A stretch of 64,000 bases of DNA from the NCBI GenBank assembly GCA_964574415.1, contig CAZNNM010000009.1:4975-68974 (forward strand), read 5' to 3'. The DNA is from an uncultured Rickettsiales bacterium. GTDB lineage: Bacteria > Pseudomonadota > Alphaproteobacteria > Rickettsiales > CAZNNM01. The position numbers and the translations under genes are program-made. The notes below the pieces were generated by a model. The model had not been told where the DNA came from and did not search any database. It was given only the letters and a program-made list of their open reading frames with translations. Positions 1,725 through 53,320 of the stretch are shown piece after piece; the first letter of the stretch is position 1; each line of letters opens with the position of its first letter.

Positions 1725-2459
1725 TTAATCGCGCCCTAAACGTCTCAAGTTCTCACGATATTTAGCATTACTCACTAACCAATTCTGATATGCCTTAGAA
1801 GTAACTCGATCAACAGGCTTAAACTGAAGGCTTGCCCATATCGGCGCAAGCACTTCAGAGGAATTGGCATAATCTTTATATTCAGAACGCATTGTCTCTT
1901 TATAACTAATCTCAATCGGCGGGAAATCCTTAGGCTGATTGGGTTGATAACAAATAAAATCCTGCGAAAAACTTTTGGGCGCAGGAGGCCTAGGAGTATC
2001 TAAAATCTCTACTAATACACAACGCATACCCGCTCGTGTTATAGTACTAATAAAAATCTCACTGCTTTTGCGTAACTTCACGGTTCTTTTCGCTTCGTCA
2101 TTCTCTCGGCGAAGACGGCGCTCAAAACTTTCTGCGTTACTAAAACCACTAAACGGTGAAATCACAACACTAAGATTTCTCAGAGTGTTGCCGTCCTTAG
2201 AGGCAGTGAGATGAAAGCCTACATCATCAGGGTCTTTATATGTTACTACTTCCCAACTATTTCTATCAGGTGGCAATACTGAGAATCTCTCTCCCTCATA
2301 ACGCTTTCCAGGTACAACTTTCTCTCTTTGATATCCAGTGGAATGGAAACTCATTCCGCAAGCTGAAAGTAAAAGCACAATAGTAGATAAGAAAGTAATA
2401 TAACGCAAAACGAAATTCCTATCGATTAGGATGGCTAATAGGTGATGGAGTAGCTGCAC
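1725..2459 (-). CDS. putative lipoprotein; candidate immunity protein for the upstream C-terminal hydrolase domain
   Basis: 244-aa ORF lying directly after the exoprotein gene, with a 41-nt overlap. A lipobox-like LLLSAC sits near the N-terminus. A TTG at 2408 preceded by AGGA is an alternative start that removes the overlap. No family recognised. Confidence 0.6.
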   Translation of the reverse strand: MQLLHHLLAILIDRNFVLRYITFLSTIVLLLSACGMSFHSTGYQREKVVPGKRYEGERFSVLPPDRNSWEVVTYKDPDDVGFHLTASKDGNTLRNLSVVISPFSGFSNAESFERRLRRENDEAKRTVKLRKSSEIFISTITRAGMRCVLVEILDTPRPPAPKSFSQDFICYQPNQPKDFPPIEISYKETMRSEYKDYANSSEVLAPIWASLQFKPVDRVTSKAYQNWLVSNAKYRENLRRLGRD

Positions 2460-8400: not shown

Positions 8401-11400
8401 ACCGTTACTGTTATTAATACCATTCGTCGTAGCAATGTTTAGGCCATTGCCCGATTGGATCGTGCCGTTGCTATTGCTCAGTGAGTTTATGAGGAGGTTG
8501 ATAAGACCAGGCGTGATAATGCTCGCATTATCATTGATAAACCCGCCTTGGACTAATTGTAAGCTGATGCCGTTCTGTACTGCGAGTATCCCACCTGCAC
8601 TGTTGACCACATCGCCATTGGCACGCATCTGCAAACCTTGGCCTACTTGGATCTGGCCGCCTCGATTCTGTAACCGTAATCCGCTCTCCAGCACCATATC
8701 CTTACTGCTATACACCAAACCGCCAAGGAGCATATCGCCATTGCGAGTCTTTAAGCTCATGCCTTCAGGTGATAAGATACTGCCTTCTGTATCCATCGCA
8801 TTCGCCGCAATGCTTACTGTACCCGTACCCGACTGGATCATCCCGTCTGTGCCTAGATTGCTCCAATTGCCGTTGGTGCTGGTAATCTCTACACCCGCAT
8901 TGCCCGCCAGTTGTGCGCTGTCTGTCGTAATATCACCCGTCGCATTAAGTGTAAGCGAATCTACTGAGGTCACTTCACTGCGCGCCAGATTGAGCAAACC
9001 ACCGCTGTTCATGCTTACATCACCGCTCGATACGATCAACGCATCCTGTGCCGTTGTATTACCGTTGCTGTTGAGAGTGAAACCATCCTCACCCACCAAC
9101 GCCACCAAACGATTCGCTTCCACACTCCCCGCATCCGCCGTAACCTGCTTGGCCACCTGCAGCAAACCCTGGCTAGTGGCTTCAGCACCTAATACCGCAT
9201 CCGTAAGCGTCAGCAAACCGGAGGATTGTAATGCTATATCCTCACTCACTACCTGGCCACCGGAGAGGTTAAGATCACCCGATTGAGCCATAATATTAAT
9301 CGCATCAGGAGCATACCAGATGCTTCCCGTTTGTGTGATGCTGCTACCCGCCTGCGCCACTATATCCGTAGCAGACAGATAGCTCGTACCACCCGTGATG
9401 TTGCCTTGTGCTGCCAGGCTTAACGCTTCATCAGCTAATATCAATGCATTGCTAAGGAGCATATCATCGGCTGCTATCGTCGCCGCACCACCGCTGCGCA
9501 ACTCCAATCCCGTCAGATTCGCATCTCCTTGTGCAGTGACGTGCATATCACTCCCAGAGGTCAGCACACTCCCCTGCGCTACCAGATTGCCTGTCGTAGT
9601 GAGCGTCAGTACACCATCCTTGCTCGACACCATACCCTGGCTAATATCAAGATCACCATTAGCATTCAGTGTAAAATCCTTCGCAGAGGCCAAGATACCA
9701 CCGCGGTTATCACTAATCCCACCTAGGTTTAGTAATAAGGAGCCACTATCACTGGCCACCTCACCAATAAAGTTATCCAACTGCCCAGCTACAGTGAGCG
9801 ATACATCATTCACCGCACCAATCTGCCCCAGCGCGTTAATCAGATCACCGCCTGCAGTAATAGCAAGCGTGTCATTGGACTGTATCAACCCTAAACTGTT
9901 ATCAATAGCATCAGCCGCTTGTATCGCCGCCGCACCATGCGCATTGATCACGCCTTCGCGGTTGTTGAGCTTATCCGCCGCGCTGAGGTTGAGTGTGCTG
10001 TTGCTATGGATAAGACCACGCTCATTGATTACATCACCACGGCTAGCAATCGTGCTACTACCCGCACTCGTAATCGCTCCATCCGTATTATCCAATACGC
10101 CCGTCGTAATAGAGAGTGTGCCATTGCTATTGATAAGGCCGAATCGATTCGTAAGCCCATTCGCCACCGCTATCGATAGGCTGCTACCCTCCGCACTGAT
10201 AATCCCACTATCATTGTTCAGGCTACCTGCCGTAATCGATAAATTACTCAAACTGATAATCGACCCATTGCGATTATCAATCAACCCACCCGCCACCAGG
10301 CTCATATCACCACCGGATTGGATCAGGCTGCCTTCGTCCAGGTTAAGCAGATCACGCACCACATGCACACTTAACGCCCCCTGGCTCCCTAAATACGCCA
10401 CACCTCTATGCACCATATTAGCAGCACGCACATCCATCCCGCCAAAGGCGAACATATCGCTATCCTGGTTTAACAGTGAGCCAGCCAACTGGATATCGGC
10501 TTGGTTGCCTACCGTAATCCGTACATTATCGTTCGTAACATCCCCCGCACCGCGTATCCGCAGATCGCGCCCTACATCCACATAGCCGCTATTATGCATC
10601 GCACCGCCGACAGTAAGCGCCATGTCCTTACCCGCATCCAGCTTGCCCGTGTTGGTGTACGCCCCCTTTACATCAATTGCCACATCATCCTGGCCATCCA
10701 ATCTTCCCGTATTGGTAAAATCACCCGATGCAACAACCTTTGTATCTTCATAGCTATAACTATGCGAATGCTTCGTAACCGAACCCGTGCTGGTAATCTT
10801 GATATCCTTGCGTGCCGTAATAGAAGCCCTCGGCGCATCTTCTCGGCCCATCACGATATTACCATTGGCATCAATCGTAATATCCCCTGCATTGGCCGCC
10901 ATATCACCATCCAGCCGAACACCCGCGCCGGACTCCGTACTCATAATATGGATCTGCCCAGCCTGCATCGCACCCACAGCCGTCGCATCAATCGCAACCG
11001 CAGGAACAATACGGCTCGCATCTGCTGCCGCTCCCGTGCTCTCACCCGTCACCGTATTATACTGCTGTCTACCACCACGAACACCCAGCTTCCCCTGCGG
11101 ATTAACCCGAACCGCACCATCCACAATCACCTTACGCCCAATCAACTCCACATCCGAAGCCGTGCTCGCTCGTAAACCACCTGCCCCCACAGAAACCGTG
11201 CCACGCTCAACGCCTAAGCCAACCAGGTTACCTGCACCATCCACCTGCACAGCACCCGTGCTCAACACCACCTGCGGCGTCTTATAAAAACTACACCCAT
11301 CACACGTCACACCATTCGGGTTCGCAACAACAACCGCAGCTTCCTTCCCCACAACCTCCGTCATACCAGCCAAACGAGACGCATTACCACCCGTAACCTC

Positions 11401-28732: not shown

Positions 28733-31700
28733 TTAACGACTGTTACCGCTGTGCCTTTCTTCTGGCTGTTGCGATTGGCTTTGCAAGTAGCGGGAAGCAA
28801 ATGCACCGGCTTCTTGAACATAAGGCCTCACCAGCGATACACTGGCTTGCGCAGCAAGTACAGTAAACGATGCAGTATTCAGCATTAACTGCTCAAACGC
28901 CGTGTTAACAATCGTTTTTACCATACCGCCAATAGTCGGATTATAGGAAGATACTACCTCTGAACCCAACTGACTCACCTTGCATACCGCCGCCCATGGG
29001 CCGTATAGCGCGGTTTTGGCTACCAGATCAACGGTTTCAACTCCAAGTGTTGTCTTCCATGATGAGCCGAAATGCTCACGGGCAAAGCCGCGTATGAATT
29101 GTTCAGCAATACCAACTGCCGCAGAAGAACAAAATACCTGCGCGTTGCTTTGTATCAGCAAACTTTGCAGATCGGCTGTGGTTTGCGGAGTGAAATCAAT
29201 CGTATCACCGTTTTGCGTATAACCACCATTGCGCAGCAATACCTCCTGCACATCATCCGCTTTCAACTCATAACCGCGCGCTTGCGCTTGCGCAGCAAAG
29301 GCTGTGGCTATAGGTGCAATGATCTCTATAGATTCATCCGCATTAAAGTTGACCACCGTGGCGTGGGATGGAACTACATCGCTCGGCGTCTCAACCACAG
29401 GATTAGGATTAGGATTAGACTTAGGCTCTGCATTCGTATGGGCAGACGATAAGAGATTCGGCATTTTCAGTGTCACCGTATTCAGGGCAACATTACGCAA
29501 CGCATATAGCGCAACACCCAACTCCACATACAATGATTGAGAGATGCCACGCGAAGCACTACTCGTCACTGGAGGAGGCGTCACCTCACCTGATGGCGGC
29601 TGTGCGCTTGGTGTTGGGGGTGGGGTGACGGGTGGGGTCGTTGGTGATACAGGCACTTCAGTCGGCGGCGAAGATGGCTCTTCGCCTGGCGTTGGAGGTG
29701 ATACTGGCTCTTCCAGGGGAGGAGTCGGCGTAGGTGTTGGAGTAGGAACAGGCACTGGTGTTGGTTCTTCCGGGGTTGGAGGCGAAGATGGCTGCGGTAA
29801 TGGATCATCATTCTGCACAATCAATCCCTGTGTTCCCACAAAATCCACCTCGTCTATACCCAAATCCTGAGTCACATCCACTCCACCGGCGAGTATTTCA
29901 AAAACTATATCCTCAAATATCGGGCTACTTCTATTATACCCTATAGTCACTGCTTGCTGTTCTGCAATCTCTATTTGCTCTTGTGGAAAATCATGAATGA
30001 CGACATATCTTCCCGTAAATCTTGGATCACTACAGTTTGGAAGATTGCTATAAGATATAAATAACGACTGATGGGATGGATTCATCACGCACCAATTATC
30101 CGCAAACTCTCCATATAGCAATGCCGCTGGCACCGGCACTGTAAGATCTATTGCCGTGCCATTAAGAAAAGCCAGATCATTTTGCCAGTTGCCATCATTA
30201 GTTCCTAATAGTCCATAAACAGTATTGCTCGCACGATTACGGGAAAGAAATGGATATATATTCAGATGATCACGCACATAACGGGTCTTAAATCCGTCTC
30301 CCTCCTCAGTGACAATAGTATACTGCTCCATTACGCTCGTACTGCGATATATCAACCCCTCGCCCAATGCCTTCATCTCTCCACGTTGCAGTGACAGAGG
30401 ATTCCCGCCGAAACGCACTCGATAAAACGGCACCACCGTACCACTCACACATTCTACCGGAATAGTCGTCGTATCCGTAAAATTAATACGAGACACAAGC
30501 GCTTCTGGGCTGACATTTTCCACCAACATCCCGCCAATAATGCCGGTAGACGATGTGGTGCTAATAAAGGTTCCTTCATCTGTGGGCAACAGTTCAAAAT
30601 GTTCGGATGATGTATCACCATGCAGGATAATACTATCTTGCGCCACATCAAATTGCTGAATGCGGTCAACACCATCGCGCCCGATGTGATATCCAAATGT
30701 ATCAGGCGCAGCGCCGCCAATCAGTGTATCTCCATATGTCGCAAACGGGAACCCATGCACATTCTCAGCCACAATCACCGATGTATGGCATCCCTCAAAA
30801 TGATGTTCATGATTCGTATGTTGATAGGTGCCATACCCCTCCCTGTTAAAAGCCGTGTCGCTATATACAGCATGCATCGGAGACGAATTGAGATAGCCCT
30901 GACAGAACGCTTTTATCATCGTGCCATTAATGCTCGGCGCCCATTGAATAAAAGAACCGGACGTTGTGGGCAATAACTGGAATGTAATAGACACACCATC
31001 GGCAAGGCCACGGTTGAGATTATCTGCATGAGAGCCGCCGGGTATCATAAAATAGCCCAACTCTTCAGCAGGAACACTCAGGCTAATATTAAACGTACTC
31101 CCCAGCGGCACTGTATTCAGATTCGCCCAGATAATTTGCCCTAAAACAGGCGCTGTTCCATTGCTCACATAATACCCAAAGCTTGGCGATCTATCGGCAT
31201 CGCTCTCCAGCAATGCCGCCTCGCCTTCCACAAATATCTGCGCATTGCCCGTATCAGGCCCGCCATAGATAACCGTCGGTGAGACATCAGATCCCCGAAT
31301 CACATCATTCCGTTCCGTGCTACACTCCACCCCACGCGGCGGTAGATAAAACTCAATAGGTGTTTCACCTATACGCGATGCAGCAGCCGTAATAACTGAC
31401 ACACCCATACTGATCATCCGGTGAAAAGTCTGTATCTCAAATCTATCATCAACCCCATGACCCTTCACCGCAACATACGGCCCAGGTGCCTGGAAATCAT
31501 ACTTCAAACGGTCAAATGTAATAATATTAGGGTCGCGCCAGATTTGGGGTTTCGCACCAGGCCGCGCAAGGAGTTTGCTGAAGAGAGAATGCTTTAGGTC
31601 ATCCAGAATGTCTTCAACATCTTGATCAAGGTAAAGGCCTATTTCTTTGCCAATATCATAAACTCTTAAAAATACCTCTTCACCCGCTATACCACCAACT

Positions 31701-31933
31701 ATTCCCGCGCCAATAGTTAACACGCCACCCGCAATAACGCCAGGCAGACCTAGCGCTAATAAGGGCGCTAGCGCTTGTGCGGTCATGGTTGCTGCAAACG
31801 CACCACCTGCAACACCACCCCCAAAACCAACGGCCCATTGTGCCATAATATCCGCAGCACCTTGCACATCACCAGATTGATACGCAGCATTAGCATCCGT
31901 GGCTGCCATCGGCGATGCACGCAAGCACATCAC
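28733..31933 (-). CDS. giant modular protein (Gly-zipper-like head, split VWD-like domain with RTX-like insert, Pro-rich linker, C-terminal module shared with protein E)
   Basis: 1066-aa ORF. Head: WAVGFGGGVAGGAFAATMTAQALAPLLALGLPGVIAGGVLTIGAGIVGGIAG. VWD-like start DPNIITFDRLKYDFQAPGPYV and end YGLLGTNDGNWQNDL. RTX-like GDTLIGGAAPDTFGYHIGRDGVD. Linker PVPVPTPTPTPTPP. The last ~280 aa are about 90% identical by eye to the end of protein E. Confidence 0.75.
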   Translation of the reverse strand: MMCLRASPMAATDANAAYQSGDVQGAADIMAQWAVGFGGGVAGGAFAATMTAQALAPLLALGLPGVIAGGVLTIGAGIVGGIAGEEVFLRVYDIGKEIGLYLDQDVEDILDDLKHSLFSKLLARPGAKPQIWRDPNIITFDRLKYDFQAPGPYVAVKGHGVDDRFEIQTFHRMISMGVSVITAAASRIGETPIEFYLPPRGVECSTERNDVIRGSDVSPTVIYGGPDTGNAQIFVEGEAALLESDADRSPSFGYYVSNGTAPVLGQIIWANLNTVPLGSTFNISLSVPAEELGYFMIPGGSHADNLNRGLADGVSITFQLLPTTSGSFIQWAPSINGTMIKAFCQGYLNSSPMHAVYSDTAFNREGYGTYQHTNHEHHFEGCHTSVIVAENVHGFPFATYGDTLIGGAAPDTFGYHIGRDGVDRIQQFDVAQDSIILHGDTSSEHFELLPTDEGTFISTTSSTGIIGGMLVENVSPEALVSRINFTDTTTIPVECVSGTVVPFYRVRFGGNPLSLQRGEMKALGEGLIYRSTSVMEQYTIVTEEGDGFKTRYVRDHLNIYPFLSRNRASNTVYGLLGTNDGNWQNDLAFLNGTAIDLTVPVPAALLYGEFADNWCVMNPSHQSLFISYSNLPNCSDPRFTGRYVVIHDFPQEQIEIAEQQAVTIGYNRSSPIFEDIVFEILAGGVDVTQDLGIDEVDFVGTQGLIVQNDDPLPQPSSPPTPEEPTPVPVPTPTPTPTPPLEEPVSPPTPGEEPSSPPTEVPVSPTTPPVTPPPTPSAQPPSGEVTPPPVTSSASRGISQSLYVELGVALYALRNVALNTVTLKMPNLLSSAHTNAEPKSNPNPNPVVETPSDVVPSHATVVNFNADESIEIIAPIATAFAAQAQARGYELKADDVQEVLLRNGGYTQNGDTIDFTPQTTADLQSLLIQSNAQVFCSSAAVGIAEQFIRGFAREHFGSSWKTTLGVETVDLVAKTALYGPWAAVCKVSQLGSEVVSSYNPTIGGMVKTIVNTAFEQLMLNTASFTVLAAQASVSLVRPYVQEAGAFASRYLQSQSQQPEERHSGNSR

Positions 31934-31980
31934 GTTATTTCATTATTATCATTTAACCCTGGAAATATTATAAACGACTA

Positions 31981-34900
31981 TCAACGGCTGCTGGCAAGTT
32001 GCTTTTCTTCCTGCTGTTGCGCGTGACCTTGCAAGTAACGGGAAGCAAATGCGCCCACTTCTTGGACATAAGGCCCTATCAACGATACAGTGGCTTGCGC
32101 AGCGAGTACAGGCAGAGATGCAGTATTCAGCATTAGCTGCTCAAACGCCGTATCAACAACCGTTTTCACCATGCCGCCAATCCTCGGATCATAGGCCGAT
32201 ACCACTTCTGAACCCAACTGGCTCACCTTGCATACCGCCGCCCATGGGCCGTATAACGCCGTTTTGGCTACCAGATCAATGGCTTCAACCCCCAGCGCAG
32301 TCTTCCACGATGGGCCGAAATGCTCACGGGCGAAGCCGCGTATAAATTGCTCAGCAAGACCCATCGCCGCAGAAGAACCAAACGCCTGCGCGTTGCTCTT
32401 TATCAGCAAGCTTTGTAGATCGGCTGCGGTCTGCGGGGTAAAATCAACCATATCACCTTTTTGCGTATAGCCACCATGGCGCAGCAATACTTCCTGCACA
32501 TCATCCGCATTCACCTCATAACCGCGTGCATGCGCTTGAGTGGCAAAGGCGGTGGCAATCGGTGCAATGACATCGATAGATTCATCCGCATTAAGGTTAC
32601 GCACCGTGACCGTCGCTTTGGATGATACTACACCGCTCGAACCTGGCGTCTCAACCACAGGCTTAGGTTCGGCATTGGTATTCGCAGGCGCTAAGAGGTT
32701 TTGCACCTTAAGTTTTACTGTACTGAATGACGTTTTACCAAGTGCAAGTGCATATGATACAACAACTGTATCTATCCAACTCATATAGAATGGCTCAGAA
32801 ATACTAGGCGAAGCACTGCTCGTCATCGGCGGAGGCGTCACCTCACCTGATGGCGGCTGCGCGCTTGGTGTTGTGGTCGTGGTGACTGGTGGCGTCGTTG
32901 GTGGCACAGGCACCTGCCCAGGCTGCCCCATAGGCTCTGAACCAGGCATAGGCGAGAAGCCGGGTTCCGGGACAAAACCGGGCTCTGGTGTTGGCTCCCC
33001 GACAGGAGGAGGTGGTAGTGGCGTCAGTAATGGTAACGTCCCCTCCAATACAGATACACTAGCAGCTGGAATCGACTCGACACGATACGGATTATACAAC
33101 ACAGTTGAAAACTCTATATCCGCCAACGATAACATCTGCGCATCACGCTTCTGCCCAGGCGCGAATGCTATATTAATACGTGTGCGTGGCAATGCATTGA
33201 ATTGCTCTAATGTCCGGCCAATATTTTCTACGTAATGATGATAAGTAAAATCTACCAACGATATCTGGGCATAAGGTCTTTCTGCTGTAGGTTGGCTTAA
33301 ATAAACGCCTGGTGGATAGCCTTCTGCAAAATAACTCAGCACCACCTCTATTTTATCACCGGCCGAGAAATCGTTAAAGTTATACACTACATCCGGAGTC
33401 CCCTCTGGATTGTTACTTGCATAGAACATCCTTAACTTATCTGGATATGGCCCGCTTATAAATGTAGCATTCTTCGCCCACCCACATTCCAGTATAGTAG
33501 AAAAAGCTCTATCTGCCATTACCGGAACCTCCAGCTCTGTCCGAACATCTACCGGTTGGTGATATTTAGTAGACGAGATAATCTCTAAGTATGTCACCAC
33601 ACTAGATACAACCTCTGTATTTCTAATATCCATTTGTGTTGCCATAATAAATGCATGCTTCTGCAATGTTTGATGCACGATAGCTGCACGCATCTGTAGA
33701 TTATGCGAATACCAAGAGAGATTTACTGGAAATGCTGAAGATTGCGTATAGGATGGCAGATTACACATTTCTAGATTACGAGAACCATAGGCACAGCCGC
33801 GGATTAACAATGATGTAGCAGCCGCTTTATAATCAGACGTAGATGCACTACCTACCCCCCATTCCACCAGCTTCTTATCACTGAACATCATTCTACCAAA
33901 GGTATGAGTATATCCGGCATCTATAACATCAAACGGAAAAGTAGGAGATACTTTAAGAACATCTTCTGGCCCAAGATATTGAACTTCACCACCAGGTAAT
34001 ATACTTGCAGCCCCACTCACTCCAGTAGCCGTCACAACATTAGACCAATGCACATCCACTACACCATCAGGCTGCGCAACCGCTCCAGTCCTAAATGGAA
34101 AATTAGCAAATGTTGTGGTATGCAGTAGCACTGGCTCAGCCTTAGGCTCACCTGTATTCGCAAAATACCGTATAAACACGCGTACCGTATTACTGCCTAG
34201 CTCAGGCAAAACATCAGCCCAGCTAACCGCAAACCCCTCCTCCTCTCCTTCTAATGCGGCACAACCAAACTCTTTTACAAACGTAGTTGAATATAACGGC
34301 ACCACCTCCTGCAAATGCCCACCTTCAGCTGCCACCACCGTCCCCACCCTAAACGGCGCCACCACAACCTGCATCTGCGCATTCACAATCATGCCCTTAA
34401 GAATATTCCCATCCGTACGATGCACAAACCCAATAAAGCTATTCCCATTACTCAGCTTTATACTCTTTAAAGCCTCATATTCCTCAGACGTTGAGAGTGC
34501 TGAAAAGGAAGTAGTATCAGCCGTCAGAAGACGCGTGCTCCCCTGCACCAGACCACCATTCATATTACGTATCTGATACGATACATGCGGGGTTATCATA
34601 TTCTCAGGCGATGGCACTAAATCCGATAAACGCCTCCCCAATAATGCTATATTTCCATTCCCTAGAGATACTATAGCATCAACTCGCAAATCGGGAATCT
34701 CAACCCGCCGCTTGCTCAAATCTATCCCAAAATCACCATTCTCAAATTCCTCCACACGAACACTATGCGAAGAACTCTGCGCTTGAATAACCAGGTCACT
34801 CCCCTGCATCCCAAGATTAAACGTCCGCCCGTCATGCACCATCGTGCACGAAACCTCGCTCACACACGTAGGCGCATCCGTGCCAAAAAGACGGTCGCCC

Positions 34901-36108
34901 ATAAAAATCTGGTTAGCAGGAGCATTCTCGTCAGCAATAACATCCTCATCGGCAGTCACACTATCAGGCAAAAACTTATACTTATTAACAGCTCTCACAT
35001 TCTCATAACGATCACTACCACCAAAATCAGGGATGTCATAATTCCCTTCCGTAGTGATAACCCTATCTCGTTTATTCGTCGTGCCGAATATCTCAGCATT
35101 AGATAAACCATGCGTCAGGATCGTTACGCCAGTTTGAAGTTCAGGATTGGGAAGATGGTTAAGATTTGCTATAAATGCAGCACGATATGCAGAAAAGTCA
35201 CCGTCATATAGCGTCTGCAAACGTGGAGGAACCAAGTCGCCCGTCAACGGATTTGCAGCCCAACGGGCTTTCATGTATTCTTCCCAGTAGTAGGGGTTTT
35301 CATCGTAATTTTCATAATGACCACGCCCACCAAGTACACCTTGTGGCCATGCATAGGGTTCACTATATACAGCTGGAAAATCCTGACCGGGTTGGAATTG
35401 TTGGAAAATAGGTCCCATACGATGCTGGCCAGTAAAAGAAAAATACCATGCATAATATACACTAGCAGGCTGTGCCGTTGTACCATCAATCGTAGTATAT
35501 GAAGGATAAGCACGATAAACCTTACCAACCTGACGATTGGCGGTATTAATTGCATTGGACGCAGCATTAAATGTTGTAACGTGTCCTTCCGCCCATTCTA
35601 ATGCCCCAGCAGTAAAGCTACCCCCAATCACAAGTTCTTGAATATTAGGACGAGAACCAGGGCTATCGAAACTTACAACAGGAGAACGGTCTCTTGCGCC
35701 ACACAATTCCGCTAGAAAACCACCCAATGAGTGACCTGTATGACTTACATGTTCATAAGGATTTAAACCAGTAATGCGTATATACTCTATAGCAACAGCA
35801 TCAATAAATGGTACTGCACTTGCCCAGAATTGCTCTGTTGCAGATGATAATAACGCTAACCATACATCATCACCTATATCCTTTACTACTTCAAATCCCG
35901 GACTTGTTCCTCTATGAGCAATAATCAGTTGCTTGGTTTCCGAATTAAAGTATGCCGACCCAAAATAGCCATTTCCTTGTAACTCTGGCGCAGCATCTAG
36001 AAGGATGGACCATCCAGTAGGTAGCCTCCCAGGTGGTAATAACAGCGTATCATCTTCATCGCGATAAACTTCAACGCTTAATAAAGCATAATCATAATTC
36101 TTTGCCAT
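31981..36108 (-). CDS. giant modular protein E with N-terminal class-3-lipase-like head
   Basis: 1375-aa ORF. The head contains HTGHSLGGFLAELCG (a GxSxG nucleophile elbow). The core contains ENGDFGIDL and SLGNGNIALLG / LSNGNSFIGF blades. The EPGFVPEPGFSP linker matches A and the C-terminal module matches the 1066-aa protein. GGAG lies 8 nt upstream of the ATG. Confidence 0.8.
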   Translation of the reverse strand: MAKNYDYALLSVEVYRDEDDTLLLPPGRLPTGWSILLDAAPELQGNGYFGSAYFNSETKQLIIAHRGTSPGFEVVKDIGDDVWLALLSSATEQFWASAVPFIDAVAIEYIRITGLNPYEHVSHTGHSLGGFLAELCGARDRSPVVSFDSPGSRPNIQELVIGGSFTAGALEWAEGHVTTFNAASNAINTANRQVGKVYRAYPSYTTIDGTTAQPASVYYAWYFSFTGQHRMGPIFQQFQPGQDFPAVYSEPYAWPQGVLGGRGHYENYDENPYYWEEYMKARWAANPLTGDLVPPRLQTLYDGDFSAYRAAFIANLNHLPNPELQTGVTILTHGLSNAEIFGTTNKRDRVITTEGNYDIPDFGGSDRYENVRAVNKYKFLPDSVTADEDVIADENAPANQIFMGDRLFGTDAPTCVSEVSCTMVHDGRTFNLGMQGSDLVIQAQSSSHSVRVEEFENGDFGIDLSKRRVEIPDLRVDAIVSLGNGNIALLGRRLSDLVPSPENMITPHVSYQIRNMNGGLVQGSTRLLTADTTSFSALSTSEEYEALKSIKLSNGNSFIGFVHRTDGNILKGMIVNAQMQVVVAPFRVGTVVAAEGGHLQEVVPLYSTTFVKEFGCAALEGEEEGFAVSWADVLPELGSNTVRVFIRYFANTGEPKAEPVLLHTTTFANFPFRTGAVAQPDGVVDVHWSNVVTATGVSGAASILPGGEVQYLGPEDVLKVSPTFPFDVIDAGYTHTFGRMMFSDKKLVEWGVGSASTSDYKAAATSLLIRGCAYGSRNLEMCNLPSYTQSSAFPVNLSWYSHNLQMRAAIVHQTLQKHAFIMATQMDIRNTEVVSSVVTYLEIISSTKYHQPVDVRTELEVPVMADRAFSTILECGWAKNATFISGPYPDKLRMFYASNNPEGTPDVVYNFNDFSAGDKIEVVLSYFAEGYPPGVYLSQPTAERPYAQISLVDFTYHHYVENIGRTLEQFNALPRTRINIAFAPGQKRDAQMLSLADIEFSTVLYNPYRVESIPAASVSVLEGTLPLLTPLPPPPVGEPTPEPGFVPEPGFSPMPGSEPMGQPGQVPVPPTTPPVTTTTTPSAQPPSGEVTPPPMTSSASPSISEPFYMSWIDTVVVSYALALGKTSFSTVKLKVQNLLAPANTNAEPKPVVETPGSSGVVSSKATVTVRNLNADESIDVIAPIATAFATQAHARGYEVNADDVQEVLLRHGGYTQKGDMVDFTPQTAADLQSLLIKSNAQAFGSSAAMGLAEQFIRGFAREHFGPSWKTALGVEAIDLVAKTALYGPWAAVCKVSQLGSEVVSAYDPRIGGMVKTVVDTAFEQLMLNTASLPVLAAQATVSLIGPYVQEVGAFASRYLQGHAQQQEEKQLASSR

Positions 36109-36123
36109 TCACTACTCCATTAT

Positions 36124-36555
36124 TTAATGCAAACTACGCTGAGCCGCTAACCACCATATAAAAGTTATTGCTATTAATGCCAGCGGTACAACTATAATTA
36201 TTGCTCCTCTGGTTAAGATATGCATATAGCTCAATTTTGTATTGCCGCTATTCCTCCATAAAAAAACTCCAACTACTAATTCATATAAAAGAAATACGCC
36301 TACCAATATACTTGCAATAACATAATCGACATCCTTACTAAAAGCAGTGTCTGAACCTGCTAATCTATCTGGATTTAAAGATGACAACAGAATATCAAAC
36401 ATATAATTCCATAGAATATTTGTTATATAGAATAGAAAGATACTTCCAACAACTCCCCACCCCCAAAACACAATCCAGAGCCTTACCTCACCTTTCCAGC
36501 ATCGTTTTAAATGATTAACAATAGACATACCCACTCCTATCAACACCCCCATCAC
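36124..36555 (-). CDS. small polytopic membrane protein (immunity-like candidate) upstream of lipase protein E
   Basis: About four hydrophobic segments. The likely true start is ATG 36528 (MSIVNHLKRCW), preceded by GGAG. It is a paralogue of the frameshifted gene at 38029..38410. Confidence 0.6.
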   Translation of the reverse strand: MMGVLIGVGMSIVNHLKRCWKGEVRLWIVFWGWGVVGSIFLFYITNILWNYMFDILLSSLNPDRLAGSDTAFSKDVDYVIASILVGVFLLYELVVGVFLWRNSGNTKLSYMHILTRGAIIIVVPLALIAITFIWWLAAQRSLH

Positions 36556-38014
36556 CCAGCGACACTAACGCATCCACTCGCAAGCCCACAATCTCAACCC
36601 GCCGCTTGCTCAAATCTATCCCAAAATCACCATTCTCAAATTCCTCCACACGAACACTATGCGAAGAACTCTGCGCTTGAATAACCAGGTCACTCCCCTG
36701 CATCCCAAGATTAAACGTCCGCCCGTCATGCACCATCGTGCACGAAACCTCGCTCACACACGTAGGCGCATCCGTGCCAAAAAGACGGTCGCCCATAAAA
36801 ATCTGGTTAGCAGGAGCATTCTCGTCAGCAATAACATCCTCATCGGCAGTCACACTATCAGGCAAAAACTTATACTTATTAACAGCTCTCACATTCTCAT
36901 AACGATCACTACCACCAAAATCAGGGATGTCATAATTCCCTTCCGTAGTGATAACCCTATCTCGTTTATTCGTCGTGCCGAATATCTCAGCATTAGATAA
37001 ACCATGCGTCAGGATCGTTACGCCAGTTTGAAGTTCAGGGCTTGGCAAGCGGTTTAGTTTCTCGGAAATAAAGGCACTACGATACGCGGCAAAATTATTC
37101 CCATAATGCTCTTGAACGCTTATCGAGACACCATTAATATTCGCCCACTCAGGATCAGCGGCCCAACGGGCAGCTATGTATTTTTCCCAGTAGTAAGGGT
37201 TCTGGTCATAATTCTTGTACTGATTATAACCACTCGTATCCACTAACGTTCCAAACGGCCAAACATCAGGCTCGCTATATACTGTTGGCAAATCTTGGCC
37301 AGGCTGGAATTGTTGGAAGATAGGAATCATACGGTGCTGGCCCGTAAAAGAAAAACTATATCCATAATAAATATTACCAGGTTGATCGCTCATGCCGTCA
37401 ATGGTCATATATGGTGAATATACCCTATACATCTTCCCAACATGAGTATTGGCAGTACTAACTGCATTAGGGGCCGCATTAAACGTCACCGTATTTGCAT
37501 CAATCCATGCCATAGCATCTGAAGCAAATGTACCATCAATAATAAGATTTTGGATATTGGGACGCGAACCAGGACTTTCAAAATTCCGAACGGGAACTTT
37601 ATCCATTGCTCCAGATAGCTCCGCCAGAAATGCCCCTAATGAATGTCCCGTGTAACTCAAATGCTCACGTGGCCCTAAACCGGTAACGCGGAAATATTCT
37701 GCTTTTGCGGCATTGATGAAGGGGATGGCATTCTCATGAAATTGTTGGGTTTGCCAATCTAGTAATGCCAACGCTATATCATCGCCAACATCAGCAAAAA
37801 TATTATCTGTTCCAGCATGTGCTATAATAAGCTGCTTTGTAAAATTATTTATATACGCTCTGCCAAAATAGCCATTTGCAGACCATCCTCCATCTTGGGA
37901 ACTGAGCAAAATAGACCAATCACTGGGAAGCCGTCCTTCAGGCAAGAAAACATCATCTTCCGGATTATTGTAACACTCAACACTAAATAATGCATATTCA
38001 TAGTTCTTAACCAT
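36515..38014 (-). CDS. truncated lipase-head paralogue (second class-3-lipase-like head plus constant region, truncated at the first NGN blade)
   Basis: 499-aa ORF. The head contains YTGHSLGAFLAELSG and is about 60% identical by eye to the E head. nt 36590-37039 are identical to E nt 34696-35145. The ORF ends in a short unrelated tail (DGGVDRSGYVYC*) where E has GNGNIALLG. Confidence 0.7.
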   Translation of the reverse strand: MVKNYEYALFSVECYNNPEDDVFLPEGRLPSDWSILLSSQDGGWSANGYFGRAYINNFTKQLIIAHAGTDNIFADVGDDIALALLDWQTQQFHENAIPFINAAKAEYFRVTGLGPREHLSYTGHSLGAFLAELSGAMDKVPVRNFESPGSRPNIQNLIIDGTFASDAMAWIDANTVTFNAAPNAVSTANTHVGKMYRVYSPYMTIDGMSDQPGNIYYGYSFSFTGQHRMIPIFQQFQPGQDLPTVYSEPDVWPFGTLVDTSGYNQYKNYDQNPYYWEKYIAARWAADPEWANINGVSISVQEHYGNNFAAYRSAFISEKLNRLPSPELQTGVTILTHGLSNAEIFGTTNKRDRVITTEGNYDIPDFGGSDRYENVRAVNKYKFLPDSVTADEDVIADENAPANQIFMGDRLFGTDAPTCVSEVSCTMVHDGRTFNLGMQGSDLVIQAQSSSHSVRVEEFENGDFGIDLSKRRVEIVGLRVDALVSLGDGGVDRSGYVYC

Positions 38015-38410: not shown

Positions 38411-38442
38411 CTTCTCTTCCCATAGTTGTATTTCGCAACCGC

Positions 38443-38471
38443 ACCATACCTAACAGCCCAACCACTGTCAA
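38443..38471 (-). promoter_or_regulatory. sigma70-type promoter, cassette copy 4
   Basis: On the minus strand: TTGACA, a 17-nt spacer, then TATGGT, about 33 nt upstream of ATG 38410. GGAAGAG lies before the ATG. Confidence 0.55.
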
Positions 38472-38595
38472 CTTTACCGATTCACCAATAAGTTATACTT
38501 TCTGGCGGATATCCGCTCGCATGATGCTATAACTCTCTGGTATATAAAAAGAGTAATGGTTGTGTTTTTAGCGCTTTGGCATAAATAGAATATTG

Positions 38596-39096
38596 CTAGG
38601 CAGCTGATGAATACGTTGTATTCCCATTCGCCAAGGAAATCATCGCATCCACCCGTAAATCAGGAATAGCATAACGGCGCTGGCTCAAATCTATCCCAAA
38701 ATCACCGCTCTCATAACCCTTAACCTTGATGCTATGCGTAGAGTCCTGGGCTTGGATGACTAAATCTCCATTCTGAACGGAGACGCTATAGGTTTTTCCC
38801 TTATGGGTCGTGGTGCAGGATATTTCGCTGGCACATTCAAAGCTGCTTGTGCCGAACTGCCCTTCATCAATATCAATACAGTACGATGGCCAGTAAGCGG
38901 CAAGGTGAGATACGATGCAGGAAGGTGAATACCAAAATAGGTACTGACTTATTTTGAAATAATTGCCGTCATTTTTGGACTTGATCGGCGTTGTTGCATG
39001 GCGATAAAATACCCTGTCATCAGCCCAAGGATGACAAGCATTCATAACACCTATGTATTTTTCTAATGTTATCTTGGGACTGTCACATTCTGACAA
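38596..39096 (-). pseudogene. chimeric remnant ORF F (unrelated 5' part with MITE fragment, out-of-frame patch of gene A, E-like segment)
   Basis: nt 38874-38938 are identical to gene A nt 23033-23097 but are read in a different frame. Downstream, FGTSSFECASEISCTTTHKGKTYSVSVQNGDLVIQAQDSTHSIKVKGYESGDFGIDLSQRRYAIPDLRVDAMISLANGN is colinear with E. It ends with the tail TYSSAA*. nt ~38975-39000 match the MITE terminal sequence CTTGATCGGCGTTGTTGCATGG. Confidence 0.65.
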
Positions 39097-39162: not shown

Positions 39163-39190
39163 GGGACGGCGAAACCGTCCCTTTTTGCTT
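39163..39190. terminator. GC-rich hairpin immediately after the 798-aa gene
   Basis: GGGACGG-cgaaa-CCGTCCC followed by TTTTTGCTT on the plus strand. On the minus strand, which is the coding strand of the flanking genes, an A-run precedes the stem and no U-tract follows it. Confidence 0.45.
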
Positions 39191-41585
39191 AGGAGATGAC
39201 ACAGTGGTCATGCTTCCGCTGCTTTTGTACTTTTTCGGTATGCAGTGACTGTGAGGAACTTGCGATACCTCCCATGGCTCCATTTGAAGATGATGCTTGC
39301 AGAGAAGGCTGCGGAGATTCATCAGGTGTCAACACTGAGACAGCAGGCATGGCACGGCTAAGCAGGGCAGATGGCGCATCCCTGCCTAATATTGCCCTCA
39401 GATTTCCCGATGCCCCCAATGCATCACGCGTTGCTTGTGCCAGCCTGCTTGCATCTTGTAGGGTGAGATAGGATGCCAGACTCTCCATAACAGATTGTGC
39501 CGTATGAATAAGAGGCTGCTGTACAGAGCGGGATTGCACATAAAAACTTGTCCAAACAGGGCCTGGCACATTACCCGAAACACCTAAAACAGAGCTATGA
39601 TATTCATAGGCTAGTTCTGTAGGCCTTATCTGTATCTGCTGTATAAAATGCATACATGTTGCAGGATATTTTTCTAATCTCGTAAGGAGATTTATATACG
39701 CCGCAGGATTCTCCTGTAACTGTCGAAGGAAATCAGCATATTTCGCATCATGCTCTTGTAACTGTACCAGGAAATCAGCACATGCTACAGGGCCCTTCTG
39801 TAGCTCGACAAGAAAATCAGCATATGTATCAGGGTAGCGCCCTAATATTGTGAGAAACTGAGTACATACACCATCCAGCGATAAAATATTTTCTTTTATT
39901 CCAGCTATTGTCCAACCTTTTGCTACTAATATGGATAGGCTGAAACATCCTCCCCCCAATATCTTTTCCAATGTTTCAAAGTCATCTTTATAACACTCTA
40001 TGATAAACTGAGGAGCAACACCTATATCTGCTAACAGCATCGCTCCATGCATCATCTTTCCGAGCAATACAGGTTGTGTTTTAGATAGCGATATAATGTA
40101 CTCATTAGGAACATTGAGTCTTTGCAAATCCTCAATAGCCCCAATCCCAGCAGCATATAAGATTTTACTCCAACCTGTTGGTTCTGTAATGCATCCATTC
40201 ACAAGCTGCGCATTAATGATGCCAAGTTCCTTGAGTACCCGAAGTCCTTCCAACCCATCTCCAGTAATCATTTGGCACAGGAGATGCGGGGTATGCATAA
40301 AAAGCTCGTGTATTTCCGGCATTCGGAATACCATAATTTGTAAGGATCGCAGCCCTCGCAACCCATCTTTACTTATCATCTGACACAGGAGATGCGGGGT
40401 ATGCATAAAAAGCTTTTGTATTCCCTCCATTGGGAATCCTGTATCTATTAAAGCTCCCAGTCCTTTCAACCTATTTTCTACAATTATCTGATAGAGCAGA
40501 TATGGCTCATTCACAACAAGATTTCGTACACCTTCCTTAGAAAGATATCCCTCTCTTAATATACACATTACGTACTGCCCAGCGTTGCTCATTATCTGCG
40601 CCAGAATATCTGGTTTCTCCGTAAAGAGTGTTTGCACCTCTTCTCCCGTAACCCCCATCTCCTGGAATACTTGCGGACACTCTAAGCTAATCGACGCCAG
40701 CATATCGCTTAAAAGAGCAGGGTTAGCTTTAAATAGATTCACAATATTATCATTATGAATACCCAATTGCTGCAATACCAGCACCCCATCCTGATTAACA
40801 TACCTTAATACATTAACAAAAGCGTATGGATTCGTTTCCAATACTTTCAGGATCGACCCTTTCCGCACACCTAAATTCTGCAATAATATGATGGTTTCCA
40901 GCCCCATGGGACTACCTATAGAAACGAATAGTGTTATATCCGTCTGAAACACGCCTGTAATCGTTTTATTATATACCCCTAATGCTCTGAATGCTATAAG
41001 ACCATCTAATAGTTTTTCATATGACAGCCTTGAATTCTCCATAAGCACATGAAAAATATCTAACGGAGAGATGCCAATATCCTGAAACCCCCGCAACTCC
41101 CCTTGTTCTACTTTAGATACCAGCGCCTTTAACAATGAATAGAGATGCCGAGCATCCTGTTGGTACCATTGCTCAATCTGGCCCTTCGTAGCTCCCCAGC
41201 TATGCAACACCCAAAATCCTTCCAGCTGAGAACGCCATCTTTGTTGATTGGCAGAATCACGCACAATCTTCTCCAGTACCTCACTCAGAAATACGGGAGC
41301 CTCGCGAAACAACTCACCTACCTGTTCAATACTCACACCAGCATCACGCAATTGCTTTAATTCACCAGCATACTTAACTATCTTACTAAAGAGTTGGTCA
41401 TACTTAGAAAACAGCGCAATAATATCATCGCGATTAATTCCCGCACCCTCTAATGCTTGAAGTACCCCCTGTCTCCTATACCCATCCATCGCCTCCGGCC
41501 ATTCTCTGACTGGATTCTGTACAGGGGTGACTGGCGCGGTAGCAGAAGATGAGGCAGTAGGCGTGTTTTTTGTTTTTTTAGGCAT
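39189..41585 (-). CDS. mTERF-like repeat protein (eukaryote-like effector candidate)
   Basis: 798-aa ORF made of more than 12 consecutive ~36-aa units of the form LxxLG(I/V)xxxxIxxLFxxxPxLLxxMxxxxxxxxxx, for example LQQLGIHNDNIVNLFKANPALLSDML and LIDTGFPMEGIQKLFMHTPHLLCQMI. Five or six ~12-aa YADFLxxLQxxP units follow. The C-terminus has an F-box-half-like LASYLTLQDASRLAQAT. Confidence 0.6.
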   Translation of the reverse strand: MPKKTKNTPTASSSATAPVTPVQNPVREWPEAMDGYRRQGVLQALEGAGINRDDIIALFSKYDQLFSKIVKYAGELKQLRDAGVSIEQVGELFREAPVFLSEVLEKIVRDSANQQRWRSQLEGFWVLHSWGATKGQIEQWYQQDARHLYSLLKALVSKVEQGELRGFQDIGISPLDIFHVLMENSRLSYEKLLDGLIAFRALGVYNKTITGVFQTDITLFVSIGSPMGLETIILLQNLGVRKGSILKVLETNPYAFVNVLRYVNQDGVLVLQQLGIHNDNIVNLFKANPALLSDMLASISLECPQVFQEMGVTGEEVQTLFTEKPDILAQIMSNAGQYVMCILREGYLSKEGVRNLVVNEPYLLYQIIVENRLKGLGALIDTGFPMEGIQKLFMHTPHLLCQMISKDGLRGLRSLQIMVFRMPEIHELFMHTPHLLCQMITGDGLEGLRVLKELGIINAQLVNGCITEPTGWSKILYAAGIGAIEDLQRLNVPNEYIISLSKTQPVLLGKMMHGAMLLADIGVAPQFIIECYKDDFETLEKILGGGCFSLSILVAKGWTIAGIKENILSLDGVCTQFLTILGRYPDTYADFLVELQKGPVACADFLVQLQEHDAKYADFLRQLQENPAAYINLLTRLEKYPATCMHFIQQIQIRPTELAYEYHSSVLGVSGNVPGPVWTSFYVQSRSVQQPLIHTAQSVMESLASYLTLQDASRLAQATRDALGASGNLRAILGRDAPSALLSRAMPAVSVLTPDESPQPSLQASSSNGAMGGIASSSQSLHTEKVQKQRKHDHCVIS

Positions 41586-48204: not shown

Positions 48205-48897
48205 ATGACAAAACCTCATCATCACTCTCACCCTCTTACACGCCCAGCAACCTCTCAAGGCTTTGACTGGTTGCTCACTTTGCTCAAACATCTTCTCCAA
48301 GCAAAGCCCAGCAAACATGGCCTGATAAAAGGGAATTTTTCTTGCCAAGAGGCGAGTTATGTGAACCCCATCATCAATGAATACCGAAAGAAATCCGGCA
48401 ACATCTTGCTCGATCAACACGAGCATCACCCTGAGTTCACACTGGAAGAACAGCATTTCGCAATCAAAACAATCGCTAAAGAGGTTCAAAAGAATGCGAT
48501 ACCCATGCCAGTTATCAGCCAAGAACCGCATAAAATTATATATGGCGATGCCCACAATCCTGATGCCCAGATCACCTATACCTTCTCACAAGGCGCATGG
48601 GTGATTACCCCAGGCAAAAATGCAGAGGCTGTGATTATTGACCCCGCGGGCAAAATCATCGAAATCAAACCAGGCCTGCATGTCGAGCAGCATGGCAATG
48701 GCGGGCATTTAAAAGTAGCACATGCACATGACCACCAACATGCCCCCACGCATCATCACTCTGAACATGACCATCATAAAGCACATAAACACAGCCACCA
48801 CCATGACGGCCCCTGCTCACATGCATGTGGCCATGGAGCCACCTCCCATGAACATCATCACCATCACGGCCATCAGTGCGGCCATCACCATCATTAG
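48205..48897 (+). CDS. histidine-rich putative metal-binding protein
   Basis: 230-aa ORF. The C-terminal 60 aa are more than 40% His, with HHHDGPCSHACGHG and HHHHHGHQCGHHHH. It starts 10 nt after the preceding gene. Confidence 0.6.
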   Translation: MTKPHHHSHPLTRPATSQGFDWLLTLLKHLLQAKPSKHGLIKGNFSCQEASYVNPIINEYRKKSGNILLDQHEHHPEFTLEEQHFAIKTIAKEVQKNAIPMPVISQEPHKIIYGDAHNPDAQITYTFSQGAWVITPGKNAEAVIIDPAGKIIEIKPGLHVEQHGNGGHLKVAHAHDHQHAPTHHHSEHDHHKAHKHSHHHDGPCSHACGHGATSHEHHHHHGHQCGHHHH

Positions 48898-49176: not shown

Positions 49177-49359
49177 CTTGATCGGCGTTGTTGCCTGGCT
49201 CTAAAAAATGTCATTCCAGCGTAGGCTGGAATCCAGTTATAGACTGGTGAGCATAGCGAGCTCTTTATATCATATAGTGTTCACTAACGCTCACAAGCAT
49301 TACGCTGGATTCCAGCCTTCGCTGGAATGACGAAAAAAGAACCATGCAACAACGCATCC
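49177..49359. mobile_element. MITE-like palindromic element (~55-bp terminal inverted repeats)
   Basis: The left end is CTTGATCGGCGTTGTTGCCTGGCTCT...GTCATTCCAGCGTAGGCTGGAATCCAG. The right end is its near-perfect reverse complement, CTGGATTCCAGCCTTCGCTGGAATGAC...GAACCATGCAACAACGCATCC. Confidence 0.6.
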
Positions 49360-52984: not shown

Positions 52985-53320
52985 GAACTTGGCCGGATTG
53001 TTGCATAGTTCTCCGTCATTGCGAGGCCACAGAGTGGCCGTGGCAATCCAGGGACAGGTTTCTCGGTTCTTTATAGGCACCTGGATCGCCACGCTACGCT
53101 CGCGATGACGGGTATATGCCTTGTCATCCTTGGACTTGATCCAAGGATCCATCCTAAACAGAGAGCAACAATACGGCTTTGAATGATGCTATGTATTTCA
53201 GATGGATTCTTGGATCAAGTCCAAGAATGACAGTGCTAATATTTTCATGCAAAAAATATAAATAGGAGTAGATGACGATACAACAAGAATATATGAAGCC
53301 AGGCAACAACACCAAGCAAG
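52985..53320. mobile_element. nested cluster of MITE-like palindromic elements
   Basis: Inner element 53015-53110: CGTCATTGCGAG...GCAATCCAGG / CCTGGATCGC...CTCGCGATGACG. Inner element 53121-53233: TTGTCATCCTTGGACTTGATCCAAGGATCCAT / ATGGATTCTTGGATCAAGTCCAAGAATGACAG. The outer arms resemble the GTTGTTGC(A/C)TGG ends of the 49177 element. Confidence 0.55.

Follow-up and report, generated by a model that had tools for sequence, protein, structure and literature searches.

Organization of the locus

The present analysis concerns a 64,000-nucleotide stretch of the genome of an uncultured Rickettsiales bacterium (GenBank assembly GCA_964574415.1; contig CAZNNM010000009.1, positions 4,975 to 68,974 of the forward strand), hereafter called the window, in which three large genes, A, P1066, and E, and related family genes are all encoded on the minus strand (Table 1). 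Each of the three proteins ends with a Pro-rich linker, a helix, a junction peptide typified by the motif NLLxPANTNAEPKP, and a tail; the tail of E and P1066 is designated C1 and that of A is designated C2. As judged from the sequence comparisons described below, A, E, and P1066 are tandem paralogs of a lineage-restricted family whose members undergo recombination among themselves, and the pattern of a shared motif followed by alternative tails among these recombining copies is well supported.

Ahead of this C-terminal region the three proteins are built differently. Briefly, E consists of an N-terminal Mbeg1/Rlip-like lipase with a GHSLGG motif and a β-rich middle region, followed by linker, helix, junction, and C1. 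P1066 starts with a glycine-zipper hydrophobic hairpin (aa ~41–89) and a VWD/Calx-beta-protein-like region, followed by linker, helix, a variant junction, and C1. In A, a glycine-zipper hydrophobic segment (aa 81–120), a sub-threshold RTX-like motif, and a β-rich core in common with E precede linker, helix, junction, and C2.

Table 1. Positions of the large genes, their C-terminal parts, and their truncated relatives in the window
Feature	Position (nt)	Strand	Remarks
Gene E	31981..36108	-	1375 aa; ORF (open reading frame) list and translation
Gene P1066	28733..31933	-	1066 aa; 1065 aa counted from ATG
Gene A	20077..24264	-	1395 aa
Junction of E	32659..32724	-	STVKLKVQNLLAPANTNAEPKP, aa 1129-1150
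Junction of P1066	29417..29482	-	NTVTLKMPNLLSSAHTNAEPKS, aa 818-839; copy diverged most
Junction of A	20887..20952	-	NTAKLQVQNLLSPANTNAEPKP, aa 1105-1126
C1 tail of E	31981..32658	-	aa 1151-1375 and stop
C1 tail of P1066	28733..29416	-	aa 840-1066 and stop
C2 tail of A	20077..20886	-	aa 1127-1395 and stop; without detectable similarity to C1
Linker and helix of E	32725..33036	-	Pro-rich linker aa 1025-1096; moderately hydrophobic helix aa 1097-1128
Linker and helix of P1066	29483..29803	-	Pro-rich linker aa 711-790; helix aa 791-817
Linker and helix of A	20953..21294	-	Pro-rich linker aa 991-1077; helix aa 1078-1104
Truncated paralog of E	36515..38014	-	499 aa; 70% identical to E aa 1-491; GHSLG kept
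437-aa paralog of A	25299..26612	-	42% identity to A aa 82-404; weak RTX matches
Fragment ORF directly downstream of P1066	27957..28706	-	like E aa 316-530 (47%) and A aa 381-495 (51%)

Junction motif and exchange of the C-terminal tails

The hexapeptide TNAEPK occurs three times in the six-frame translation of the window, once near the C-terminus each of A, P1066, and E, against a chance expectation of ~0.002 occurrences. When the junction is defined as 22 codons, its three copies lie where a first-pass annotation of the stretch, made from the letters alone, had placed them; the consensus NLLxPANTNAEPKP given there holds for A and E, but not for P1066, which reads NLLSSAHTNAEPKS. The N-terminal portions of E and P1066, regarded as unrelated in that annotation, indeed showed no similarity, and only the C-terminal ~329 aa of the two proteins could be aligned (71% identity; E = 5e-116), corresponding to 79.4% identity across 933 nt of DNA. 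Between A and E, 110 aa of linker and junction aligned at 50% identity and a central region of 302 aa at 26%; this ~300-aa central region is absent from P1066, which aligned with A over 81 aa and nothing more. Of the common core proposed earlier for the family, roughly 100 aa of linker, helix, and junction were thus found in all three proteins, but nothing beyond them.

The module that follows the junction is common to E and P1066 as had been noticed, but it is 225–227 aa long instead of ~280 aa, and the two copies are 80% identical at the protein level, below the ~90% estimated by eye. Similarly, the C-terminus of A shows no detectable similarity to C1 (E = 2.3 by BLASTP, and E = 0.08 across 44 columns by hhalign), but is composed of 269 aa, not ~290. 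Exchange of C-terminal domains among the paralogs, the central proposal of the first-pass annotation, is borne out by the same C1 standing on unrelated N-termini, and by A having the same linker and junction followed by C2.

The borders of the similarity were examined at the DNA level. In the A/E pair, the junction is 82.8% identical over 64 bp (A 20887–20950), with the identity ending right after AEPKP, and a second island corresponding to the linker piece EPGFxPEPGFxPxPxSEPMGQPGQ is 79% identical over 116 bp (E 32899–33014 versus A 21103–21215); only background identity was found between the two islands and after the junction. In the E/P1066 pair, the sliding identity stays at a background of ~30–40% up to E 33030–32913, within the Pro-rich linker, rises to 82–87% past this onset, falls to 42–67% with indels over the helix and junction, and reaches 80–95% over C1 as far as the stop codon, just past which it collapses. 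The helix and junction are accordingly the stretch of lowest similarity in the region shared by E and P1066 (52% aa identity, with indels). The sharp boundary described at the junction therefore applies to the A/E pair, but not to E/P1066, whose breakpoint falls in the Pro-rich linker. Instead of the gradual divergence that would speak against an exchange, the alignment of the three C-terminal regions shows the sharp A/E junction.

Purifying selection and a mosaic origin

C1 is under purifying selection, as seen from the comparison of the E and P1066 copies over 222 codons (synonymous divergence, dS, 0.45; non-synonymous divergence, dN, 0.106; dN/dS, 0.24). The dS values between the same two genes differ along the shared region, being 1.41 for the helix and junction, 0.56 for the linker, and 0.45 for C1, an unevenness that speaks for recombination. 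The junctions of A and E are distinguished by six synonymous and four non-synonymous codon changes in 22 codons; the constraint therefore acts on the peptide, not on the DNA, and the junction peptide, like C1, is under purifying selection. A constraint on the DNA itself, such as a regulatory site, was ruled out because the copies differ mainly at synonymous positions.

In the three-way codon alignment, E matches A in the first linker island and P1066 in the second; its junction is again A-like, and the sequence from PVVETP onward is again P1066-like. The informative sites of E that are A-like or P1066-like are clustered (runs test; 52 runs; permutation p = 0.00055), which indicates that the C-terminal region of E is a recombinant patchwork formed by gene conversion or recombination among the paralogs, with breakpoints that the alignment places in the linker and on both sides of the junction. 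Two other tracts join members of the cluster. One is a 456-bp tract with 3 mismatches (99.3% identity) between E (34696–35151) and the 499-aa paralog (36590–37045), which are otherwise 55–80% alike, and looks like a recent gene conversion; the other is a 65-bp segment, 100% identical, between A (23023–23087) and a 166-aa fragment ORF (38874–38938) located 15 kb apart. An assembly artefact was also considered and ruled out, because the paralogous regions are 70–85% identical and too divergent to collapse.

Relatives of the tail domains

No known housekeeping domain was recognized in C1 in searches of Pfam, NCBIfam, and PDB. We searched 1.84 billion representative proteins exhaustively with HMMER, using a profile built from the C1 regions of E and P1066; apart from P1066 itself (as the identical entry P0001), the only credible relative was P0003 (586 aa; E = 1.4e-8). 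Two other entries, P0002 and P0004, are long repeat proteins whose scores were summed over many weak stretches, and they were rejected as spurious. P0003 comes from a metagenome assembly, in which its gene lies between a peptidase gene and secF. It starts with a short region bearing a calcium-binding-like motif, after which come a Pro-rich linker of ~250 aa, a hydrophobic helix, and C1; its N-terminus differs from those of both E and P1066. The C1 region of P0003 is 26% identical, and its homology was confirmed by tblastn (28% over 203 aa; 6.7e-13).

Other searches for relatives were negative. No match to C1 or to the whole of A was found by tblastn in 72,556 plasmids, and junction and module patterns, scanned twice each against 185,579 species genomes and the JGI metagenomes, revealed no relative. 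A word-indexed protein search with C1, the alignment of C1 and P0003, or C2 returned nothing, and is a weak negative in that the proteins of the queries themselves were not recovered either. Looked up among about 15 billion proteins, every window protein so checked was a singleton at the 90% identity level, and the lineage is therefore very poorly sampled.

Putative N-terminal payloads and extreme C-termini

The N-terminal region of E (aa 31–227) matched the NCBIfam model Rlip_lipase (7.6e-15; 54.7 bits, versus an equivalog cut-off of 440), as did the 499-aa paralog (2.7e-13), with both scores, about 50–55 bits, being far under the cut-off. In a tblastn search with E, plasmid genes annotated as Mbeg1-like/DUF2974 were found. 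The lipase region is thus similar to the model of Rlip, a secreted Rickettsia effector (PMC12507273), and the GHSLG nucleophile motif of the Rlip/Mbeg1-like (DUF2974) lipases is kept in both E and its paralog. These matches fit a lipase belonging to the same broad group, not an equivalog; unlike those lipases, the lipase of E represents only the first ~300 of 1375 residues, and the likeness covers the payload, not the junction or tail.

P1066 has a match to the VWD domain (Pfam, 8.3e-08) and a segment resembling large proteins annotated as Calx-beta domain-containing (tblastn). RTX-type motifs are sub-threshold in both A and the 437-aa paralog, A showing a single HemolysinCabind match (aa 266–292; 19.2 bits, versus a cut-off of 23). 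Hydropathy profiles revealed N-terminal glycine-zipper hydrophobic hairpins in A and P1066, not in E. All three proteins are acidic (isoelectric point, 4.6–4.9), and none of their translations, inspected by eye, starts with a Sec-type signal. From these characters A, E, and P1066 are probably exported without signal peptides. The helix before the junction is moderately hydrophobic, with no 19-residue window reaching 1.3 on the Kyte–Doolittle scale.

C1 is located at the extreme C-terminus in all three proteins that carry it (E, P1066, and P0003), and each of these tails has a polar end of the form ...EE(x)6R, with Glu-Glu at positions −9/−8 and a terminal Arg. Both features would suit the secretion or translocation signal that the first-pass annotation speculatively saw in the acidic polar end. 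In A, ERED is found at −19 to −16. The published E Blocks of Dot/Icm effectors contain 3–6 acidic residues in 6–10 positions, mostly starting 11–18 residues from the end (PMC3096851), and the tail of A appears to fit this description.

Truncated paralogs and repeats in the cluster

Aside from the three large genes, the cluster contains orphan pieces of the family, which are all N-terminal or middle portions, with no tails among them. When aligned to E, the 499-aa paralog was found to have no linker, junction, or tail, and the same three parts are absent from the 437-aa paralog of A. Further fragments at 27315–27779 and 38596–39096 match middle portions of A and E. The fragment ORFs at 27957–28535 and 38596–39096 (minus strand) have their final peptide, ...NGNT(V/T)YSSAA, in common, and the DNA beyond it is similar as well (27803–27869 and 38441–38506), which suggests that one and the same repeat cut both of them short at an identical point.

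A promoter-like element, TTGACA-17 nt-TATGGT, is present in three identical copies (38471–38443, 27833–27805, and 25190–25162; minus strand), each within a repeat of ~70–95 bp and upstream of one family gene unit. The recurrence of this element in the repeats suggests that whole units were duplicated along with their promoter. In addition, a terminator-like hairpin, GATGCAGATAAAA(A)TCTGCATT followed by a T-run, occurs in two copies (27269–27248 and 25253–25233) within a 157-bp repeat (25186–25341 and 27201–27357).

Two small genes adjoin the large ones. A 291-aa lipoprotein-like protein with a signal ending in LVSC is encoded at 24261–25136 (minus strand), in an ATGA overlap with the start codon of A, and a 143-aa multi-pass membrane protein is encoded at 36124–36555 (minus strand), directly upstream of E. 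Neither of them gave a family match, and a role as partner, chaperone, or immunity gene is conceivable for both. Another neighbouring gene, at 26627–27268, encodes a 213-aa membrane protein.

A proposed portable C-terminal cassette and the alternatives

Based on the results described above, we tentatively favour, at somewhat less than even confidence, the reading that A, E, and P1066 are a recombining family in which C1 is a portable C-terminal cassette for the delivery or targeting of variable payloads. We infer this role because purifying selection acts on C1, which is always C-terminal and stands on three unrelated N-termini, and because the proteins look exported without N-terminal signals. 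Each protein is composed of a variable N-terminal payload, a Pro-rich spacer, the helix with NLLxPANTNAEPKP, and then C1 or C2. The putative payloads are the lipase in E, the VWD/Calx-beta-protein-like region behind a glycine-zipper hairpin in P1066, and the glycine-zipper segment, RTX-like motif, and β-rich core in A. The cassette of linker, helix, junction, and tail would be the constant and portable part, possibly recognized for export from the free C-terminus, localizing the payload, or both. The short conserved islands in the linker and junction may double as homology patches, through which tails and payloads are re-assorted. It is unlikely, in our estimation, that spacer, helix, and C1 together represent an undescribed cassette for export or translocation, i.e. 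a new class of portable signal, with C2 being the version for another route or destination.

Several results weigh against the assignment of a delivery or targeting role, the first two of them also against a signal in the acidic polar end. The C1 tails, having two acidic residues, fit only the loosest published definition and are a weak E Block. No secretion system genes were found among the window ORFs scanned (not every ORF was), except that for an unrelated two-partner secretion (TPS) exoprotein. Neither C1 nor C2 matched any entry in Pfam (even at E ≤ 10), NCBIfam, PADLOC, or PDB sequences. P0003 does not contain NLLxPANTNAEPKP, and the motif is therefore not an integral part of the module and not essential to the role of C1. 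AlphaFold2 (AF2) models of C1 were poor, with a predicted local distance difference test (pLDDT) score of 42.8 from two sequences and 54.6 from three; in these models the first ~80 residues form a β-α-α-β-β-α unit (pLDDT, 60–83) followed by long helices, so that C1 is predicted, at low confidence, to be mostly helical. A Foldseek search of PDB with the C1 model gave noise only (E ≥ 1; TM-score < 0.26). Altogether, structure prediction and the search for remote homologs yielded no fold or family for the shared module, but one distant relative, P0003. As for the recombination, it is deduced from small numbers, namely four cassette-bearing sequences only, and a faster divergence of the P1066 junction could mimic part of the mosaic pattern.

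The arrangement recalls polymorphic toxins of the CdiA-CT, Rhs, and MafB types, in which a short peptide marks the start of alternative C-termini, as VENN does in CdiA and PxxxxDPxGL in Rhs; the motif found here is analogous, but is none of the known ones. C1 and C2 would then be alternative toxic warheads, for example membrane-active helical domains, with NLLxPANTNAEPKP marking the start of the variable tail and the truncated paralogs being orphans kept for recombination. In accordance with this, the conserved motif lies directly ahead of the alternative C-termini, the clustered genes include fragmentary paralogs and gene-conversion tracts, small membrane protein or lipoprotein genes adjoin the large genes (one of them in the ATGA overlap with the start of A), and a CdiA-like TpsA gene, duplicated in its 3′ part, is situated 10 kb away. 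However, no candidate immunity ORF follows either copy of C1 or C2: downstream of E, P1066 begins after 48 bp; downstream of P1066, a family fragment begins after 26 bp; and downstream of A lies a convergent gene for a 344-aa repeat protein. The N-terminal parts constitute no conserved trunk or delivery domain, E and P1066 being unrelated there, and no TPS, Rhs, PAAR, or LXG domain was detected in A, E, and P1066 with Pfam and NCBIfam. Moreover, two adjacent genes bear the same tail at 80% identity on unrelated N-termini, the orphan pieces are N-terminal or middle ones instead of tails, and the recognizable enzymatic domain of E, the lipase, is N-terminal. A toxin system of this kind hence appears rather improbable. 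C1 also differs from the C-terminal domain of the pore-forming colicins, since it has no Pfam match at E ≤ 10 and, in place of a hydrophobic helical hairpin of ~40 residues, only one weakly hydrophobic stretch of about 20 residues (peak hydrophobicity, 1.35).

An envelope anchor was also considered, in which the helix and tail would hold the protein in or on the envelope and the Pro-rich spacer would act as a rigid stalk projecting the payload, as in TonB and the wall-spanning regions of surface proteins, so that a swap of tails would change the anchoring partner. The Pro-rich spacers of 70–250 aa immediately before the hydrophobic helix in all four cassette-bearing proteins and the adhesin-like payloads (VWD, Calx-beta-protein-like, and RTX-like) are consistent with such a stalk. 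We nevertheless give this function little likelihood: the hydrophobicity of the helix is below that of a classical membrane span, there is no signal peptide to carry most of the protein past the inner membrane, and C1 and C2 match no known anchoring domain. Alternatively, there may have been no swap at all, C1 and C2 being far-diverged forms of one ancestral tail, in which case the sharp boundary would reflect a constrained junction peptide beside a fast-evolving domain. MAFFT and hhalign gave the same alignment of the tail starts, LNADES...ARGY...VQEVLLRHG versus LSPEES...ERGI...AHKILEEHG, P0003 has LSPETS at its tail start like A, and the two tails are close in size and, judged from their composition, helical, with that of C2 favouring helix. 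The similarity is not significant, as seen from the BLASTP and hhalign values given above, and the junction of E is nearer to that of A while its flanks are nearer to P1066, at synonymous sites too, a pattern not expected from simple vertical divergence. Descent without exchange is for these reasons hardly probable.

The three proteins were further compared with other secreted systems. As in MARTX and the modular type I secreted toxins, the proteins are large and acidic, their domains are re-assorted by recombination while the C-terminal region is constant, and traces of RTX-type calcium-binding motifs are seen. Unlike in type I RTX proteins, arrays of GGxGxD nonapeptides are lacking near the C-terminus, E and P1066 have no RTX matches, and no genes for an ATP-binding cassette transporter or membrane-fusion protein were found among the window ORFs scanned, such genes being possible elsewhere in the genome. 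The Dot/Icm (type IVB) effectors of Legionellales likewise comprise modular paralog families with a polar, Glu-containing extreme C-terminus, and the neighbouring genes are effector-like or eukaryote-like (mTERF repeats, a GT2-like glycosyltransferase segment, and the lipase). In contrast to these effectors, the window shows no type IV secretion genes, acidic residues in the C1 tail are limited to two, and the payloads look extracellular (VWD, RTX-like, and Calx-beta-protein-like).

Recombination that re-assorts the modules of large secreted proteins is a well-known way in which bacteria diversify toxins and effectors. The present architecture and tail domain have not been described, and the domain is almost without relatives. 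The usual polarity is reversed here, with the payloads varying at the N-terminal side and the cassette of spacer, helix, and tail being portable and constant. If the cassette is a delivery or targeting device, it would provide a new handle to recognize exported proteins in poorly sampled bacteria and a new carrier for fusions with reporters or cargo. Should it be no more than a structural domain specific to this lineage, the locus would still be a clear small case of gene conversion building mosaic genes.

Other genes in the window

The window also holds the TPS exoprotein, a copper-resistance operon, and an aryl-polyene-type lipid cluster. The paralog cluster is flanked on one side by a 798-aa protein (39189–41585; minus strand) with an mTERF domain (Pfam, 7e-17), which belongs to a mainly eukaryotic organelle family, and on the other by a 344-aa protein (18968–20002; plus strand) with related tandem repeats (18988–19342). 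A 1707-aa protein (13826–18949; minus strand) has a GT2-like glycosyltransferase segment at aa 175–309 and otherwise no family match; it may be another large effector-like protein.

The TPS/filamentous haemagglutinin protein (3129 aa; 2419–11808; minus strand) shows a GHSNG hydrolase motif in its final ~150 aa. The 3′ part of its gene is copied downstream over 1.7 kb at 89% identity (1–1708 versus 3540–5247), and the duplicate, which extends past the edge of the window, resembles a CdiA-type orphan module. A gene for the TpsB partner was not found among the nearby ORFs scanned.

Scans of the window with Rfam and for tRNA genes gave nothing, and self-comparison revealed two imperfect palindromes in intergenic regions (49185–49355, 171 bp, 72%; 53122–53232, 111 bp, 79%). 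CopA of the window is only ~60% identical to the copies on Acinetobacter plasmids. Judged from its genes, the window was placed in a Gram-negative organism, probably among the gammaproteobacteria; the assembly itself is assigned to the Rickettsiales. A few kb from the copper-resistance genes, a 230-aa protein (48205–48897; plus strand) with no Pfam match has a very His-rich C-terminus containing long HHHH runs.

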